Shown: positions 33,737-55,209 of the stretch, in pieces
How positions within the stretch are numbered: position 1 is the stretch's first letter
Layout: every line of letters starts with the position of its first letter
IMG/VR virus record: IMGVR_UViG_3300037140_000174
Location: 1 to 64,000 of that record
Origin: a virus
Reading direction: 5' to 3' (one strand)
Length of the DNA: 64,000 bases
Notes under the pieces: model-generated
Told to the model about the DNA's origin: nothing
The model's database searches: none
What the model saw: the letters and a program-made list of their open reading frames with translations, nothing else
Translations under genes and position numbers: made by a program

Positions 33737-33762
33737 GAATTTCTCCTTTCTAGGAGGCTGAT

Positions 33763-34692
33763 ATTCCGCGCAACGGTTCAGGGACTTACACTCTTCCGCA
33801 GTCGCCCTTTGTTCCAGGGACGACGATATCTTCGGCTGCGGTAAATTCTGATTTTTCAGATGTTGCCAACGCCTTGACTGGATCAGTTTCTGTTGATGGT
33901 CAAACCACCATCACTGGTCAGTTGAAATTCCCAAATGGGTCGGCTGCTGCCCCATCTCATACGTTTGCATCAAATCTTACGACGGGGATGTATTATATTG
34001 GAACGAAATATTTGGGTTTCACTACGGGTGGAACCCAAATTGTCGCCTTCAATGGTAATAGTCAAGGTTCTGGTCAAAGTGGAAATGTAATCGAAATTAA
34101 TACTGCGACTGGAACTATTTATCCTAACCCAGTTGGTTTTATTGGGGATTTTGCAGGACCTACGGCTCCCGCTGGTTGGCTTCTTTGCTATGGACAAGTT
34201 GTCAACACAAGTGATTATCCAGAGCTTTTTGTAGCTCTAGGAAGTACCAACACTTATGGAGGAAATGGAACTACTACATTTGGTATCCCTGATTGTCGTG
34301 GCCGTGCTTCTTTTGGTAAAGATAATATGGGAGGTTCGGCTGCCAACCGAATTACTTCGGCTGGTGGTAATTTTGATGGCACGGTTCTTGGGGGCACAGG
34401 CGGTCAGCAGAATTTTACCCTTACGACAACCCAACTGCCGGCCATTAAACCAGCAATAACGATTACTGATCCAGGGCATCTTCATATTACGTCTAATCTT
34501 GTCGTCAACGGAGGTGGAAGCGATAATATCCTTACGAGTGGGGGTATTATTAATATTACTGCACCTAACACAAACACAGCTGTGACCGGAATAACGGCTG
34601 CTTTTACCAGCAATCTTGGTTCTGGGAATGCTACTCCGGTTCTGTCACCTTCAATTATTTTCAATAAGATAATCTTTGCAGGGCGTGTATAA
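33763..34692 (+). CDS. Tail fibre with tail-collar domain; proposed ATT start
   Basis: AGGAGG-ctgat-ATT CCG CGC AAC GGT TCA (xPRNGSGTYTLP) in frame with ORF 33874; collar motif P.GWLLC.GQ...YPELF..LG..YG.GNG.TTF.IPD.RGR. Confidence 0.85.
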   Translation: MPRNGSGTYTLPQSPFVPGTTISSAAVNSDFSDVANALTGSVSVDGQTTITGQLKFPNGSAAAPSHTFASNLTTGMYYIGTKYLGFTTGGTQIVAFNGNSQGSGQSGNVIEINTATGTIYPNPVGFIGDFAGPTAPAGWLLCYGQVVNTSDYPELFVALGSTNTYGGNGTTTFGIPDCRGRASFGKDNMGGSAANRITSAGGNFDGTVLGGTGGQQNFTLTTTQLPAIKPAITITDPGHLHITSNLVVNGGGSDNILTSGGIINITAPNTNTAVTGITAAFTSNLGSGNATPVLSPSIIFNKIIFAGRV

Positions 34693-50314: not shown

Positions 50315-51265
50315 TTAGCGGTCCAAATCCAACGCCATGGCCACTGAATGAAGCAGCGGTGCGAAGCGATCAGAAGCTGCGTAGGGTGTTAGAAACGGCT
50401 CAAGAACTGCAAGCAGGGGCTTCACTTTTTGTTCGCTGTTGGTATTCAGTAGAACCACCATCAGGTAATTGACGATGTTTATCCTGATGCTTTCAGCATC
50501 CAACCTACCATCCAGGTCCTTGATAATTTTGATGGCTGCCCCCCATGAGCGTCCTTTGTTGCCTATCAACATGCGACACAGGTCAATGACTTCCTTATTT
50601 TGACCACCACTTTTGATTACTTCCCGTGCCTCAGAAGCAGTTTCACAGAACGTGCAAGCTTCAAGGAATACTAGGGCCTGTCGTGGGCTCCCACCACAGC
50701 CCTCAGCTATGGCTTCCAGCACTTCATCAGATTGGTCAATTTTCTCTTGGTCAGCTACTTTGGTTAGTAGTTCGAGAATTTCCTCTTCAGGAACTGGCTT
50801 TAATGCGAACTCAACACATCTGGTTTTTATTGTCTTGGGAATTTTGCCCGGCTCAGTAGAGCACAGAACCCAGTAAACGTGATTTGGTGGTTCTTCAATT
50901 GGCTTTAAGAGGATGGTCCAAGCCGCAGCACTAAGACGGTGGCACTCGTCAACGATAATAACTTTAACAGGTGAGGAACCAATTGCACGGAACCTAGTAT
51001 GTTCCACAATTTTGCGCATGTCATCAGCGCCAGAATTGGCTGCTGCGTCTATCTCTTCAACATTTTGTTGAGTAGCTTCACCCCCACACCAGACGTTAGC
51101 CAAAACACGGGCCAGGGTGGTCTTTCCGGTCCCAGATGGGCCGGTGAATATGAAGGATTTGGCACGTTTATCCTTCACTATGCGCTTGAGTGAAGCGACA
51201 ACGTCGTCCTGCCCAATTACTTCTGTGAAGGTCTTGGGCCTATAAACCGTGTGAAGGGATGTCAT
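50315..51265 (-). CDS. dnaX: Clamp loader AAA+ ATPase (DnaX gamma/tau-like)
   Basis: YRPKTF.EVIGQ, GPSGTGKTT, IDAA, IVDECH.LS, IEEPP, TIKTRC. Confidence 0.92.
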   Translation of the reverse strand: MTSLHTVYRPKTFTEVIGQDDVVASLKRIVKDKRAKSFIFTGPSGTGKTTLARVLANVWCGGEATQQNVEEIDAAANSGADDMRKIVEHTRFRAIGSSPVKVIIVDECHRLSAAAWTILLKPIEEPPNHVYWVLCSTEPGKIPKTIKTRCVEFALKPVPEEEILELLTKVADQEKIDQSDEVLEAIAEGCGGSPRQALVFLEACTFCETASEAREVIKSGGQNKEVIDLCRMLIGNKGRSWGAAIKIIKDLDGRLDAESIRINIVNYLMVVLLNTNSEQKVKPLLAVLEPFLTPYAASDRFAPLLHSVAMALDLDR

Positions 51266-51271
51266 TAAAGC

Positions 51272-53878
51272 CTATACGTCCCGGTGTGACCAAAATTTCC
51301 CTAATGGCTCTAATTCAGCCCAGTTCTTGCCAAGAGAAATTTCGATAGATAATGGGACGTTAATCCATTTATAATCGAACTTTAGCATCTGTTTCATGAT
51401 AATTTCTAATGCAGGCTCAAGAAGCTTTTCATCTTCAGGAATGAAAAAGCTTAAATCGTCATGCACGTTCAAAACTGGGTGCATGTACCAGTTTCCAGAT
51501 TCTGACGCTATTATGGATAGCCTATTCATGGCGTCACACACCAATTCAGCCTCCGCACCTTGAATCGGCATATTCACTGCTTGATTCCTGGTCAGTGGGT
51601 AGTTGTGCCGCCTTCCAGTGAGTGTCGTAACATATCCCTCATCATAGTAGCGTCTCATGGTCTCATCTTGCCAAGAGTGGACGCCGGCAAATATTTTCCA
51701 GAATTCATCCATTAGGTCGTCCACATCACCTTGATCTACGTCATACTCAGTGGCTGCCGTCAGATACCTTTTGACTGATGTGGAAGCAGCACCAAAGAAA
51801 GCGGGGAAAACTAACTTATTTTTTATTAGAGATCTAAAACCCTTCATTATTTTTGCGTCTTTAATGTTTTCTTTGCCCCCTATGAGCCCAGGGGCTTTGT
51901 GGGCTGCTTTTAGAGCCCATTCCATATGGATGTCGTAGTCCTCCCAAAGAGCTTTCACCAAGTATTTGTCGCGTGAGCACATAGCCCCGGTGCAAGCTTC
52001 TAGCTGCCCATAGTCCACAGCCACCATCAAGTGCCCTTTAGGTGGAACAATTGACTTCCGTACCCAAGAATCATTTCTTTTTGGAAAGTTCTGAAGGTTT
52101 GGCGAACTACTACTCAGCCTGCCGGTCTCCGTAAATGTGGTGTTGAATGAAGTGTGGAGCTTACCGTCAGGATAAATAATATCTCCAACCCCAAGCTCAA
52201 GCCCATCAACGTAGGTGGATTTGAGTTTGGATTTGTTCCTAAGTTCGACAATCAGCTTAGCCAAAGGGTGGTCAATTTTATCCAACACATTTTTGTCAAC
52301 GGAATAGCGAGTGTTATTTTCTTCAACAATTGTCACTTCCTTACGCTTAAGATAATCTCTGAAAAGCTTGATTGCATCTTCACCCAGTGGGTTGAATTCT
52401 TTATTATCCAGTACATACTTTTTGACCACCTTAAGATCATGGATCTTGGCCATGATCAGATTCACTTCACCCTCAAGCTTTTTCTGTGAACTCTTTATCT
52501 CGTCTTGATTTACAATCACACCTAGGCTTTGCATGATTGCAACAGTGCATTGCCTAGGGAGTGCTTCTATGTAGGCATCATAAACCTGAAGCTCTCGCAT
52601 TATCTCATTTTGAGTAACCCAGAGCTGAAGCGTAATCTTAGTATCTACCCCATTGTAGATCAGTATTTCACCTAGGTCAGATTTTGACATATCCTTCTTA
52701 TCAAGCTTGAAGAAGCTTTTGTAGGAAGTGCCAAAATACTGCTTACATAGGAAATCTAGTTTTTGATATGGAGAAGCGTGATCTTCTTCACTGTTGCCTT
52801 GTTTGCCTTTACGCTCATCAATGAAATGAGCCTGCATCATGGTGTCTTCCCAGACATCATGCCTGACTACATCTTTAGCGTAGAGCCAGATGAACCACTC
52901 TAATTCAAAGGGAGCATTGTGAGCTATCTTTATAGTGTCATCACGAAGTATTCTCTGAAACTCAGCACCAATTTTCAGCTTCTGCTGATCTGTCCATTTT
53001 GACTTAGGGTGATCCCAAGCGAAGGCTACGTGGGTAGCCTGAAAACTAATTGCCATCGACATGATGGCGGCCCCTTTGCTGTACGGCCTCAGCCCTTTGG
53101 TCTCAATATCTACGGCTTTGACCTCCGCTTTCTTTGCCTGCTGAAGCAGACCCATCAGTAACGCGAAGTGCCCAGGTTCAGAACCGTCAAAGCACTGAAT
53201 CCCAGCTCGCATCTGATCTTCAGTCGGGATGGCAGTAGCAGCACGAAGTTTTGGGGCCAATTCAAAAGCCCGCTTCAAATCCATTTTGAAGCAATGACCC
53301 AACCTTGATCGTAATGGCTTCTTTTTGTCATAAGCCATTTTAATCAAGTCAGTAGGATCATAGGTGGGCATGAAATACCCCACCCACTCACCTATTTTGA
53401 CTTTGAAGATGCGTCCACGCATCCCTACGAGGTCATTTGACCCCAAAACCTGGGATAAGGCACCGTGGCCTAGACCGATTATTAGCTTTGGATTTGCTGT
53501 TTCAATACTCTTTGTGACTAGTGGACGGCAACACTCAGTTTCCTGCCATGATGGCTTCTTAGTGTAGTCACGCACTACGTTGTCAAAGGAGCAGAATTTA
53601 AGTGTCTCTTCAGGTATTTCTGCAATGTGCAGATTGCCAAACGGTTCCCCAGATTTATCGTCAGCTTCAGTAGGCCCGCTCCCTAGGAAGTAGACGAGTG
53701 TATTTTTAGCCAAAATAGGGGCCATTTTAGGCGTGGTTACGTCCGCCTTGTTAAGCGGGCAGGCGGCACAGCCAATGCGTGACAGCGTCTGGGCGCTGGC
53801 CTTACCCCCCGACGTTGGACCCCTACCAGTGGCCTTTGCAATGGGTTTACGGGCCGGTTTGGTGAAGAAAAATGAAAT
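51272..53878 (-). CDS. polA: Family A DNA polymerase with N-terminal UDG-like and 3'-5' exonuclease domains; proposed ATT start
   Basis: DIET, HNAPFE, TGRLSSSSPNLQN, DYGQLE, NMPIQG, NVHDD; the 51 open codons upstream of ATG 53725 contain CAACPL and begin GGAGG-N7-ATT. Confidence 0.92.
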   Translation of the reverse strand: MSFFFTKPARKPIAKATGRGPTSGGKASAQTLSRIGCAACPLNKADVTTPKMAPILAKNTLVYFLGSGPTEADDKSGEPFGNLHIAEIPEETLKFCSFDNVVRDYTKKPSWQETECCRPLVTKSIETANPKLIIGLGHGALSQVLGSNDLVGMRGRIFKVKIGEWVGYFMPTYDPTDLIKMAYDKKKPLRSRLGHCFKMDLKRAFELAPKLRAATAIPTEDQMRAGIQCFDGSEPGHFALLMGLLQQAKKAEVKAVDIETKGLRPYSKGAAIMSMAISFQATHVAFAWDHPKSKWTDQQKLKIGAEFQRILRDDTIKIAHNAPFELEWFIWLYAKDVVRHDVWEDTMMQAHFIDERKGKQGNSEEDHASPYQKLDFLCKQYFGTSYKSFFKLDKKDMSKSDLGEILIYNGVDTKITLQLWVTQNEIMRELQVYDAYIEALPRQCTVAIMQSLGVIVNQDEIKSSQKKLEGEVNLIMAKIHDLKVVKKYVLDNKEFNPLGEDAIKLFRDYLKRKEVTIVEENNTRYSVDKNVLDKIDHPLAKLIVELRNKSKLKSTYVDGLELGVGDIIYPDGKLHTSFNTTFTETGRLSSSSPNLQNFPKRNDSWVRKSIVPPKGHLMVAVDYGQLEACTGAMCSRDKYLVKALWEDYDIHMEWALKAAHKAPGLIGGKENIKDAKIMKGFRSLIKNKLVFPAFFGAASTSVKRYLTAATEYDVDQGDVDDLMDEFWKIFAGVHSWQDETMRRYYDEGYVTTLTGRRHNYPLTRNQAVNMPIQGAEAELVCDAMNRLSIIASESGNWYMHPVLNVHDDLSFFIPEDEKLLEPALEIIMKQMLKFDYKWINVPLSIEISLGKNWAELEPLGKFWSHRDV

Positions 53879-53881
53879 GTC

Positions 53882-54187
53882 TTAGCCTCCAATTCTGGCT
53901 TTGACTTTTTCTACATCATCCCCAGTTTTGAGTGGCTTGCCGTCAATCAGCATTTGAGATACTTTATTTATCGCGTAGTAGACAGACGAGTGGTCACGCT
54001 TCCCAAACCTCATGCTGATATCCCGCAATGATCGGAAGGTTAGCTTACACATGCAGTACATGGCGATGTGCCGCCAATAAGTGACGCTGAGTGTCTGTAC
54101 GTCTGGAGCCACCAACACATCTATCGGAATTTCAGCGATTTCCGATACTGCATTTAACACGTCATCAATTGTGACGGTTTTGATCAT
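53882..54187 (-). CDS. DnaA C-terminal-like HTH protein
   Basis: RHIAMY......SL.DI...FG.RDHSSVYYA..KV. Confidence 0.8.
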   Translation of the reverse strand: MIKTVTIDDVLNAVSEIAEIPIDVLVAPDVQTLSVTYWRHIAMYCMCKLTFRSLRDISMRFGKRDHSSVYYAINKVSQMLIDGKPLKTGDDVEKVKARIGG

Positions 54188-55209
54188 CCCATATTGCTTA
54201 TCAGTTGAAAGAAGTTGCTCCCCGATGTGCATACACAACACTCCTCCGTAATTGCTATCTTTTCAGAAATACTCAGTGAGCGTTGCAGGAGCTGAGCACT
54301 CACACCAGCTTCCACATCAGGGTGCTTGAAAGGTAACACGTCCCTGACAATGCCCATCGAGGCATCAGTGACTACTGTTACCTTTCCACCCTTCACAGTC
54401 AGGATGGTTTTTGCAGATTCAGGGTCAGCTACAATGCGTGCTCGTGAAAGCGCATTGTCTAATAGCTTCGGCACGTCTACCATTTGTGGAGTTGTACTTA
54501 TCTTTTTCTTTATCTGACCGGCAAAATCAAGAGGACGATCATTTTGAATTATCCTACCATAAACGGTTACCTCACCAATTGAGGCAATTGCCCAATCCTT
54601 GCTCAGTGAAAGTGTGGCATCCTCAACTTCTGGGATTTTAAGCACAGTTTCACAAAAAGAAGTTGGAATCATGTAATCAGGGAGTTTTGGGTTTCCCTTT
54701 ATTGTAGTGATATATCGCGTCAATGTATCCCCATCACAGGAATACATAGTTATGGCTTTATCTTTCTGAGTAATTGAAACCCCTTTCAGGGCAGGCATAG
54801 CCTCACTCTTAGCCACAGTCATTAAGCAACGATCAAGGCCATTTAGGAAGTCACTGTCAATTTTGACCGTAATATCCGGTGCTTCTTCAGGCTCAGTAAA
54901 TAGAAATTCATCGTCAGGATGAAACGGAAGCTTGAAAGTACTCTTACCAGCCTTGATGACTAGATCATGCCCTTCAAAATCAATCTCAACTTCCTCAGAA
55001 TAGCTATTCTTGAGTAGCCCAAGCAGTGTCTTGCCATCAACCCCGAATGATTGCTCAGTTTCACACTTGGTTACAATCCCAAGCACGTCATTGTAGGCTG
55101 CTACTTCACTGCCATTGAATGTGAAGCATTTGAAGATTGGGACTAGGTCACCATCAGCTAATGCACGGCCAACTAGCTCCAAAGTATCAACCAGTTCTTT
55201 TCTATTCAT
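54184..55209 (-). CDS. dnaN: Sliding clamp (DnaN beta-like)
   Basis: 341 aa; N-terminal R.EL...L, PIF..F, P.L.GV, .DG..L, AL.RA; adjacent to polymerase and dnaX. Confidence 0.8.
   Translation of the reverse strand: MNRKELVDTLELVGRALADGDLVPIFKCFTFNGSEVAAYNDVLGIVTKCETEQSFGVDGKTLLGLLKNSYSEEVEIDFEGHDLVIKAGKSTFKLPFHPDDEFLFTEPEEAPDITVKIDSDFLNGLDRCLMTVAKSEAMPALKGVSITQKDKAITMYSCDGDTLTRYITTIKGNPKLPDYMIPTSFCETVLKIPEVEDATLSLSKDWAIASIGEVTVYGRIIQNDRPLDFAGQIKKKISTTPQMVDVPKLLDNALSRARIVADPESAKTILTVKGGKVTVVTDASMGIVRDVLPFKHPDVEAGVSAQLLQRSLSISEKIAITEECCVCTSGSNFFQLISNMG

Follow-up and report, generated by a model that had tools for sequence, protein, structure and literature searches.

Does the DNA polymerase gene of an uncultured 93-kb phage, carried on the minus strand of the 64,000-nucleotide stretch analysed here (the window), begin at the first ATG of its reading frame or 51 codons further upstream, at an ATT? 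Very few genes of model bacteria start at AUU; in Escherichia coli these are infC (coding for IF3) and pcnB (poly(A) polymerase I). ORF and gene callers pick the ATG at 53723-53725, which codes Met52, a conserved internal residue within T-P-K-M. The original prediction moved the start to the ATT at 53876-53878, followed by TCA TTT TTC TTC, and the arrangement it described is present in the DNA. A GGAGG Shine-Dalgarno (SD) sequence (53886-53890) is separated from the ATT by the 7-nt spacer ctaagac, and the TAA stop codon of the preceding gene (53882-53884) lies in frame with the polymerase, 3 nt (two codons) 5' of the ATT. Read in frame, the 51 codons that precede ATG 53725, beginning with the ATT (53726-53878), hold neither a stop nor an ATG, GTG or TTG, and Met52 is the first canonical start to follow the upstream TAA. 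The coding sequence opened by the ATT (51272-53878) would yield 868 amino acids with a UDG-like domain, a 3'-5' exonuclease and a family A polymerase. The 51 residues missed by gene callers carry an S-F-F-F amino terminus and the CxxC of the UDG-like domain. Comparison with homologues indicates that the gene almost certainly starts at this ATT, behind a strong SD.

The domain content is supported by Pfam matches to PF00476 (family A polymerase, E 8e-58), PF01612 (3'-5' exonuclease, E 3e-9) and PF03167 (above cut-off). Homologous proteins have 860-900 amino acids, to be compared with 868 for the ATT-started product. Taken by itself, the extension can be aligned over its full length to residues 1-53 of homologue P0011 (57% identity, E 2e-18), and five positions that are invariant among homologues (R35, G37, C38, C41 and L43) all lie within it. 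Two of the conserved cysteines of the UDG-like domain are among them, and the extension motif G-C-A-A-C-P-L is matched by K-C-T-A-C-P-L in TM0511, a family-4 UDG of solved structure (1L9G/1VK2). This alignment (E 1.2e-7) begins at residue 36, upstream of Met52, and runs from the CxxC onward. Judged from these alignments, the agreement of the extension with homologue amino termini is more than chance. The UDG-like domain itself is retained. Its glycosylase activity is doubtful because the canonical family-4 motif G-E-[A/G]-P-G, which adjoins the active site, is absent, the window having G-S-G-P-T where TM0511 has G-E-G-P-G and the homologues A-E-A-P-G, and because five residues are deleted directly after G-S-G-P-T.

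These data bear on a start at ATG 53725, which would give an 817 amino acid polymerase and leave the 51 codons as untranslated leftovers. Met52 is the first canonical start of the frame and was chosen by gene callers in four datasets. However, homologues whose canonical start lies upstream nearly always have this methionine too, its ATG is poorly served by a weak SD (-4.2 kcal/mol), and the sequence upstream of it is free of stops and matches a homologue. A protein started there would moreover lack the first cysteine pair of the Fe-S domain, the truncation that the original prediction had anticipated. Initiation at Met52 is thus very unlikely.

The start codons of homologous polymerase loci give a direct comparison. 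The ATT of the window aligns exactly with the ATG, GTG or TTG start of about 40 loci, whose products open with M/V/L-[S/G]-F-F-F where the window has I-S-F-F-F; the same codon position is ATT or ATC in nine other loci. The question of whether homologues begin with M-S-F-F at this codon thereby receives a positive answer, with a second class of loci that share the non-canonical state. ATT or ATC occurs in at least two further lineages of the polymerase, one being L020 and another the clade formed by L003, L050, L008, L009 and L012 (five distinct sequences). With the window included the non-canonical start is found in at least three lineages, and the tree requires at least five changes, with two reversions. 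In L013 and L045 the ATT gave way to GTG or ATG via small insertions. The indels of the ATT clade are multiples of three downstream of the ATT but not upstream of it. Two distant loci with ATA at the aligned position (L056 and L057) were counted as canonical because they have an in-frame ATG two codons upstream, while L061, with ATC and a GTG four codons upstream, was left ambiguous.

The GGAGG of the window would form a duplex of -9.3 kcal/mol with the 16S 3' tail. All seven distinct non-canonical loci have SD energies between -9.3 and -11.6 kcal/mol, versus a median of -4.25 kcal/mol in 26 canonical loci. The five independent pairs of non-canonical and canonical loci all differ in the same direction, with a sign test p of 0.0625 in a test that with five pairs is incapable of reaching 0.05. 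RNA folding around the polymerase start is no better than in shuffled sequences (z -1.3).

Conservation of the ATT within the window's own lineage was judged by the gene-call lengths of relatives. Gene callers likewise began three proteins of other datasets, P0062 (Logan, differing by at least one residue), P0061 (ENA) and P0004 (Logan, 93% identical), at the internal Met, and these therefore have no canonical upstream start either. A scan with the 393 amino-terminal residues found no close relative in viral contigs; in JGI metagenomes the same residues retrieved only a 37%-identical locus and no close relative. A DNA similarity search against 50,697 phage records gave no match. An ATG start with a weak SD is found on a related contig of 92 kb that was binned with an acidobacterial MAG; the binning is only a weak hint on the host.

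Conservation of the amino terminus extends to cultured phages. The Vibrio Mardecavirus phages (SSP002) and Edwardsiella phage vB_EpM_ZHS code polymerases with the same domain order, an M-[S/G]-F-F amino terminus and a clamp gene nearby, although their identity to the window polymerase is only 22-28% over the 260 amino-terminal residues. Their starts are canonical, ATG-GGA-TTC-TTT in SSP002 and GTG-TCG-TTC-TTC in the Edwardsiella phage. Persistence of S-F-F-F over this distance argues for its translation, and it bears on initiation at another near-cognate codon of the extension such as CTG 53785 (Leu32), which would keep the CxxC and lose S-F-F-F. This CTG belongs to the polymerase frame and follows a G-rich run at 53810-53800 (GGGGGGTAAGG), for which strong SD pairing is calculated at 53800-53791. 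The spacing between the run and the CTG is nevertheless 14 nt, beyond the usual 5-9, and the run is not conserved in homologues. Together with the conserved S-F-F-F these features leave such an internal start with very little probability, and the ATT is retained as the initiation codon.

The polymerase gene follows two other genes on the minus strand. The sliding clamp gene (DNA polymerase III beta-like, PF00712) occupies 54184-55209 in the same operon and is followed by a small gene coding a DnaA carboxyl-terminal HTH-like protein (53882-54187; PF08299, E 3e-15). The ATG of the latter overlaps the TGA of the clamp gene in an ATGA at 54187-54184. Between the end of the clamp gene and the start of the polymerase (54184-53878) the minus strand showed no promoter- or terminator-like site; farther upstream there are two weak promoter-like matches, at about 55394 and 55565. 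On the mRNA the junction of the DnaA_C-like and polymerase genes reads UAA GAC AUU. The in-frame position of this TAA, and a 51-codon ORF from TTG 53892 that overlaps the extension in another frame, could suggest that the polymerase is fused to the DnaA_C-like protein by readthrough or reached by a frameshift. Against this, the stop in the other ATT lineages is a TAG, out of frame and 2 nt before the ATT, the upstream gene varies among homologues (it is the clamp gene in SSP002) and the S-F-F-F position is the start in all of them. TAA is also the least leaky stop codon, and a fused product is extremely improbable.

It is very likely that initiation at AUU 53878 is genuine and SD-driven, aided by coupling to upstream translation and yielding a low polymerase output. 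The strong GGAGG 7 nt upstream would position the 30S subunit on the AUU, and ribosomes that finish the DnaA_C-like gene at the UAA, 3 nt before, would probably reinitiate there. The initiator tRNA is expected to pair with the AUU despite the third-position mismatch, which would render initiation several-fold to about 20-fold weaker than at AUG. The 93-kb phage genome encodes no tRNA that could serve as initiator at AUU. Since AUU initiates less efficiently than AUG, the polymerase would be made at a constant, low ratio to the clamp and the other products of the same mRNA. We infer from this arrangement both the use of the AUU and the low output, as well as a selected benefit of the latter.

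A second AUU start is found in the same genome. On the plus strand, AGGAGG, ctgat and an ATT at 33763 (33752-33765) precede a gene for a tail-collar-domain fibre protein (33763-34692; PF07484), which has 309 amino acids if started at the ATT and was called as 272 amino acids from TTG 33874. Homologous fibre proteins open with M-P-R-N-G-S-G-T-Y and align with I-P-R-N-G-S-G-T-Y in the window, while the nearest relatives have ATC, ATT, ATA or ACG at the same codon. A strong SD accompanies every non-canonical start, in polymerase and fibre loci alike.

The fibre gene also speaks to a more trivial, biologically meaningless origin of the polymerase ATT: a mistake of sequencing or assembly, or else an ATG that mutated to ATT only very recently in a genome that is defective or hypomorphic. 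The base is known from a single metagenome-derived IMG/VR contig and one substitution separates ATT from ATG. Such an event is highly improbable when three independent near-identical or related proteins are likewise called from Met52, the non-canonical state recurs at the polymerase start of other lineages from many samples, and the genome has its second ATT start; error would likewise not account for the strong SD found in every non-canonical case. The AUU start advanced in the original prediction is accordingly strongly supported by amino terminus homology, recurrence in related phages and SD strength.

AUU initiation is a known mechanism, to which the phage polymerase adds a case. Starts at AUU, AUC and AUA reach about 5-25% of the output of AUG, and where they occur naturally they have extended SDs (PMC3592434, PMC5499595, PMC13009471); the efficiencies known from E. 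coli and S. aureus may not be those of the phage host. The closest parallel is the E. coli thrS-infC junction, UAA GGU AUU (PMC3592434), where as in the phage (UAA GAC AUU) the AUU stands behind an SD with the upstream stop 3 nt before it. E. coli pcnB similarly has an AUU at the initiation position behind an SD, and by analogy with both genes an output below that of AUG is expected for the phage polymerase too. In S. aureus non-canonical starts behind an extended SD are found in infC (AUA), ccpN (AUA) and cvfC1 (AUU), with initiation reduced relative to AUG (PMC13009471). The association of a weak AUH codon with a strong or extended SD is shared by the phage polymerase and fibre loci, though the S. 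aureus sites were located with ribosome profiling and reporters, the phage ones by comparison. Among phages, an AUU start was predicted for orf28 of Streptococcus thermophilus phage TP-J34, whose sequence was re-checked by the authors (PMC3952083). That is one gene in one phage, without the comparative support, SD compensation or recurrence seen here.

The phage codon differs from that of E. coli infC in that it is not deeply conserved and alternates with ATG, GTG, TTG and ATC among relatives. As the codon flips to ATG or GTG in close relatives, the start seems to be a tunable or labile state rather than a fixed switch, unlike the deeply conserved infC device. Such lability is as compatible with a slightly deleterious state that is tolerated as with one under selection. 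The proposal that the AUU deliberately limits the polymerase dose hence stands in part: that a weak codon keeps polymerase and fibre scarce is plausible and agrees with both the second AUU gene and the way a weak codon is combined with a strong SD, while the flips to canonical codons leave its deliberate nature conjectural.

Given the AUU starts in the polymerase, the fibre and their relatives in other phages, standard gene finders shorten these proteins. They lose 51 residues of the polymerase, with half of the Fe-S ligands, and 37 of the fibre. The same miscalling occurs in related phages, and database entries for this family are hence systematically truncated. AUU starts thus recur on two kinds of low-copy phage protein, always with a strong SD. 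The natural series of ATG, GTG, TTG, ATT, ATC and ATA starts with matched SD strengths is a tool to study co-evolution of start codon and SD and protein ratios in operons. Tentatively, AUU, AUC or AUA combined with a maximal SD might be, in a clade of about 90-kb environmental phages, an evolvable setting for low-stoichiometry proteins such as the replicative polymerase and tail fibres, a setting turned on in some phages and off in their close relatives. Their synthesis might in this way also be tied to the host IF3-to-ribosome ratio during infection, a version of the IF3 sensing that the original prediction offered as an alternative for the polymerase. Such IF3 dependence, if true, would couple both the replication of the phage and its assembly to the condition of the host translation apparatus.

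The window, which contains the DNA polymerase gene, covers the initial 64 kb of an IMG/VR viral contig of 93,069 bp rated complete by CheckV. Its full frame (51272-53878, minus strand) codes for 868 amino acids comprising a UDG-superfamily domain, a 3'-5' exonuclease and a family A polymerase. As described in the original prediction, a GGAGG Shine-Dalgarno (SD) sequence (53890-53886) and the spacer ctaagac precede an ATT codon (53878-53876) followed by TCA TTT TTC TTC, and the 51 codons leading from this ATT to ATG 53725 contain no stop and no in-frame ATG, GTG or TTG. The in-frame TAA reported ahead of the ATT is likewise present (53884-53882, minus strand). It terminates a small gene for a protein with the DnaA carboxyl-terminal HTH domain (PF08299, E 3e-15), which ends 3 nt before the ATT.

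The polymerase gene is a member of a tightly packed replication operon. The sliding-clamp gene (54184-55209, minus strand) overlaps the DnaA_C-like gene by an ATGA (54184-54187) that couples the two, so that translation of clamp, HTH protein and polymerase is coupled in a single chain. A clamp-loader-like gene (50315-51265) begins 6 nt past the polymerase stop. Between the end of the clamp gene and the ATT, the minus strand showed no promoter- or terminator-like site. Farther upstream, weak promoter-like matches occur at about 55394 and 55565.

A search of 5.8 billion proteins yielded 58 relatives with the identical three-domain set, most of them 860-900 amino acids long and covering the query from residue 1. 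The MSFF opening looked for in homologues occurs as M/V/L-[S/G]-F-F-F, aligned residue for residue with I-S-F-F-F of the window protein. The 51 additional residues alone match residues 1-53 of the homologue P0011 (57% identity, E 2e-18), and R35, G37, C38, C41 and L43, all inside the extension, are invariant or nearly so. The domain can be aligned to a solved structure, that of the family-4 UDG TM0511 (1L9G/1VK2; E 1.2e-7), from the CxxC at residue 36 onward, which bears out the claim that ATG 53725 truncates the UDG-like domain. Initiation at this ATG belongs to a set of four alternatives, with sequence error or fresh mutation, an internal CTG, and a fusion product, that are improbable even when taken together. 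The ATG has no SD, its use would lose the CxxC, and proteins with canonical upstream starts also conserve the corresponding Met52 at an internal position (T-P-K-M). The CTG at 53785 does follow a G-run, but at a distance of 14 nt; homologues do not conserve this run, and a protein begun at the CTG would lack the conserved S-F-F-F. Synthesis of the polymerase as a fusion by readthrough or frameshift is opposed by the out-of-frame upstream stop in other ATT lineages and by variation of the gene upstream of the polymerase among homologues.

In distant cultured relatives the polymerase opens with ATG GGA TTC TTT (Vibrio phage SSP002) or GTG TCG TTC TTC (Edwardsiella phage vB_EpM_ZHS). The M-[S/G]-F-F-[F/Y/H] amino terminus (window 53864-53878, minus strand; 601-615 and 514-528 in the homologous loci L081 and L082) is kept down to cultured Vibrio and Edwardsiella phage enzymes of 22-28% identity. 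A sliding-clamp gene is always near polymerases with this terminus, which might act as a clamp-binding peptide. In the window lineage (53640-53690, minus strand; residues ~65-85) the family-4 UDG motif is degenerate, reading G-S-G-P-T rather than G-E-[A/G]-P-G or A-E-A-P-G and followed by a 5-residue deletion, with the four conserved Cys retained. Judging from these changes, glycosylase activity may have been lost in this lineage.

Two scans, of viral contigs and of JGI metagenomes, gave no close relatives of the window polymerase. The three closest public proteins come from other datasets: P0062 (Logan; nearly identical), P0061 (ENA; same 90% cluster) and P0004 (Logan; 93%). All are called from an internal Met, with 817-819 amino acids, implying that no ATG lies upstream behind GGAGG, as a gene caller would have chosen it. 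At the position aligned with the ATT, the 43 homologous viral loci that include the amino terminus carry ATG (26), ATT (8), GTG (4), TTG (2), ATC (1) or ATA (2, both with an in-frame ATG two codons upstream). The ATT/ATC loci originate from different samples and, apart from the window, represent two or more lineages: L020 and the clade L003/L050/L008/L009/L012. A tree that leaves out residues 1-60 requires at least five changes of the trait. Indels in the ATT clade are multiples of three downstream of the ATT and not so upstream. Small insertions restored a canonical start in two members: in L013 the 6-nt TAGGTG just after the old ATT creates a TAG stop and a GTG start, while L045 regained an ATG. 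When the whole 93-kb genome was searched mechanically for near-cognate codons that follow a strong SD and open a long 5' extension, the polymerase gene and one for a tail-collar fibre were the sole clear cases. The relatives' calls, the recurrence of the codon, the indel phase and the genome scan argue that the ATT is neither an error nor a fresh mutation. L012 (100-150) and L013 (2150-2200) have nearly identical polymerases with different starts, and the sequence upstream in L013 is unrelated; the difference has the look of a reversion, or of a recombination event, that arose naturally at the start site.

SD energies were calculated for the duplex of the 17 nt before the start with the 16S 3' tail. 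They range from -9.3 to -11.6 kcal/mol in all seven distinct ATT/ATC polymerase loci, while the median of 26 canonical loci is -4.25 and a single one reaches -9.3 (p 4e-5 in a rank test that ignores phylogeny). Phylogenetically independent pairs all go in the same direction (5/5; sign-test p 0.0625, the floor for five pairs). Natural AUU/AUA starts of S. aureus similarly all have an extended SD in ribosome profiling (PMC13009471), and the fibre loci repeat the association of weak codon and strong SD.

The fibre gene (33752-34692, plus strand) starts with AGGAGG, ctgat and ATT (33752-33765; ATT at 33763), and gene callers miss its first 37 codons by starting at TTG 33874. Its product carries a phage tail collar domain and reads I-P-R-N-G-S-G-T-Y where 17 of 19 aligned homologues open M-P-R-N-G-S-G-T-Y or close variants; the two nearest sequences, the call for the window itself and P0087 (87%), were cut short by the gene callers. 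Sequence homology thus confirms this predicted AUU start. Several of the fibre loci most similar to the window gene are non-canonical, all with an SD of -8.5 or stronger: ATC in L083, ATT in L084-L088 and L096, ATA in L089/L090 and ACG in L134. These related phages' ATA, ATC, ATT and ACG starts all lie behind GGAGG-type SDs. The start is uniformly ATG in a distant 35-kb group.

Four related large contigs were scanned in the same way. G001 has an ATT polymerase and an ATG fibre gene; G002, the contig of L007, has ATA and ATC in two adjacent fibre genes (74815 and 73883, minus strand) and an ATG polymerase; G003, the contig of L020, has an ATT fibre gene (16178, plus strand) and an ATC polymerase. 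The scan gave no clear non-canonical case in G004. Since G001-G003 carry the trait on differing genes, it belongs to the clade while the carrier gene varies. Outside the window, ATT and ATC codons at 86396-86411 (minus strand) follow a very strong, G-rich SD (-11.8 kcal/mol). A 52-codon ORF has its first canonical start 5-7 codons farther downstream, and the two codons are possibly a third weak start or a chance match. Two long stop-free frames, 90731-91753 (plus strand; 340 codons) and 91748-92902 (minus strand; 384 codons), reach an ATG/GTG/TTG only after 328 and 212 codons, respectively; one of them may be a gene with a non-canonical start, or may merely mirror the other on the antisense strand.

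For infC and pcnB, initiation at AUU and discrimination against it by IF3 are established. In the reading adopted here the initiator tRNA would start at AUU, driven by the SD, and at the polymerase gene would be aided by ribosomes terminating 3 nt upstream. The window junction UAA-GAC-AUU has a geometry identical to that of E. coli thrS-infC (UAA-GGU-AUU), whose reporters give ~1/4 of the AUG level, about half by reinitiation and half by de novo initiation (PMC3592434). Other measurements place AUU/AUC/AUA at 5-15% of AUG (PMC5499595). At the fibre gene, whose ATT is separated from the preceding gene by 186 nt, initiation does not require coupling and must rely on the SD alone.

Predictions of isolated AUU starts exist for phages, as for TP-J34 orf28 (PMC3952083); no description of such starts for phage polymerases or fibre genes was found in the literature searched. 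Clade-wide, programmatic AUU/AUC/AUA starts on low-copy proteins are a tentative proposal. Polymerase and fibre protein are needed in small numbers relative to their operon neighbours, making dose limitation a reasonable purpose of the AUU starts; putative IF3 sensing through them is a possibility. The frequent flips between ATT and ATG/GTG show that the state is labile and tunable, unlike a regulatory device that is fixed.
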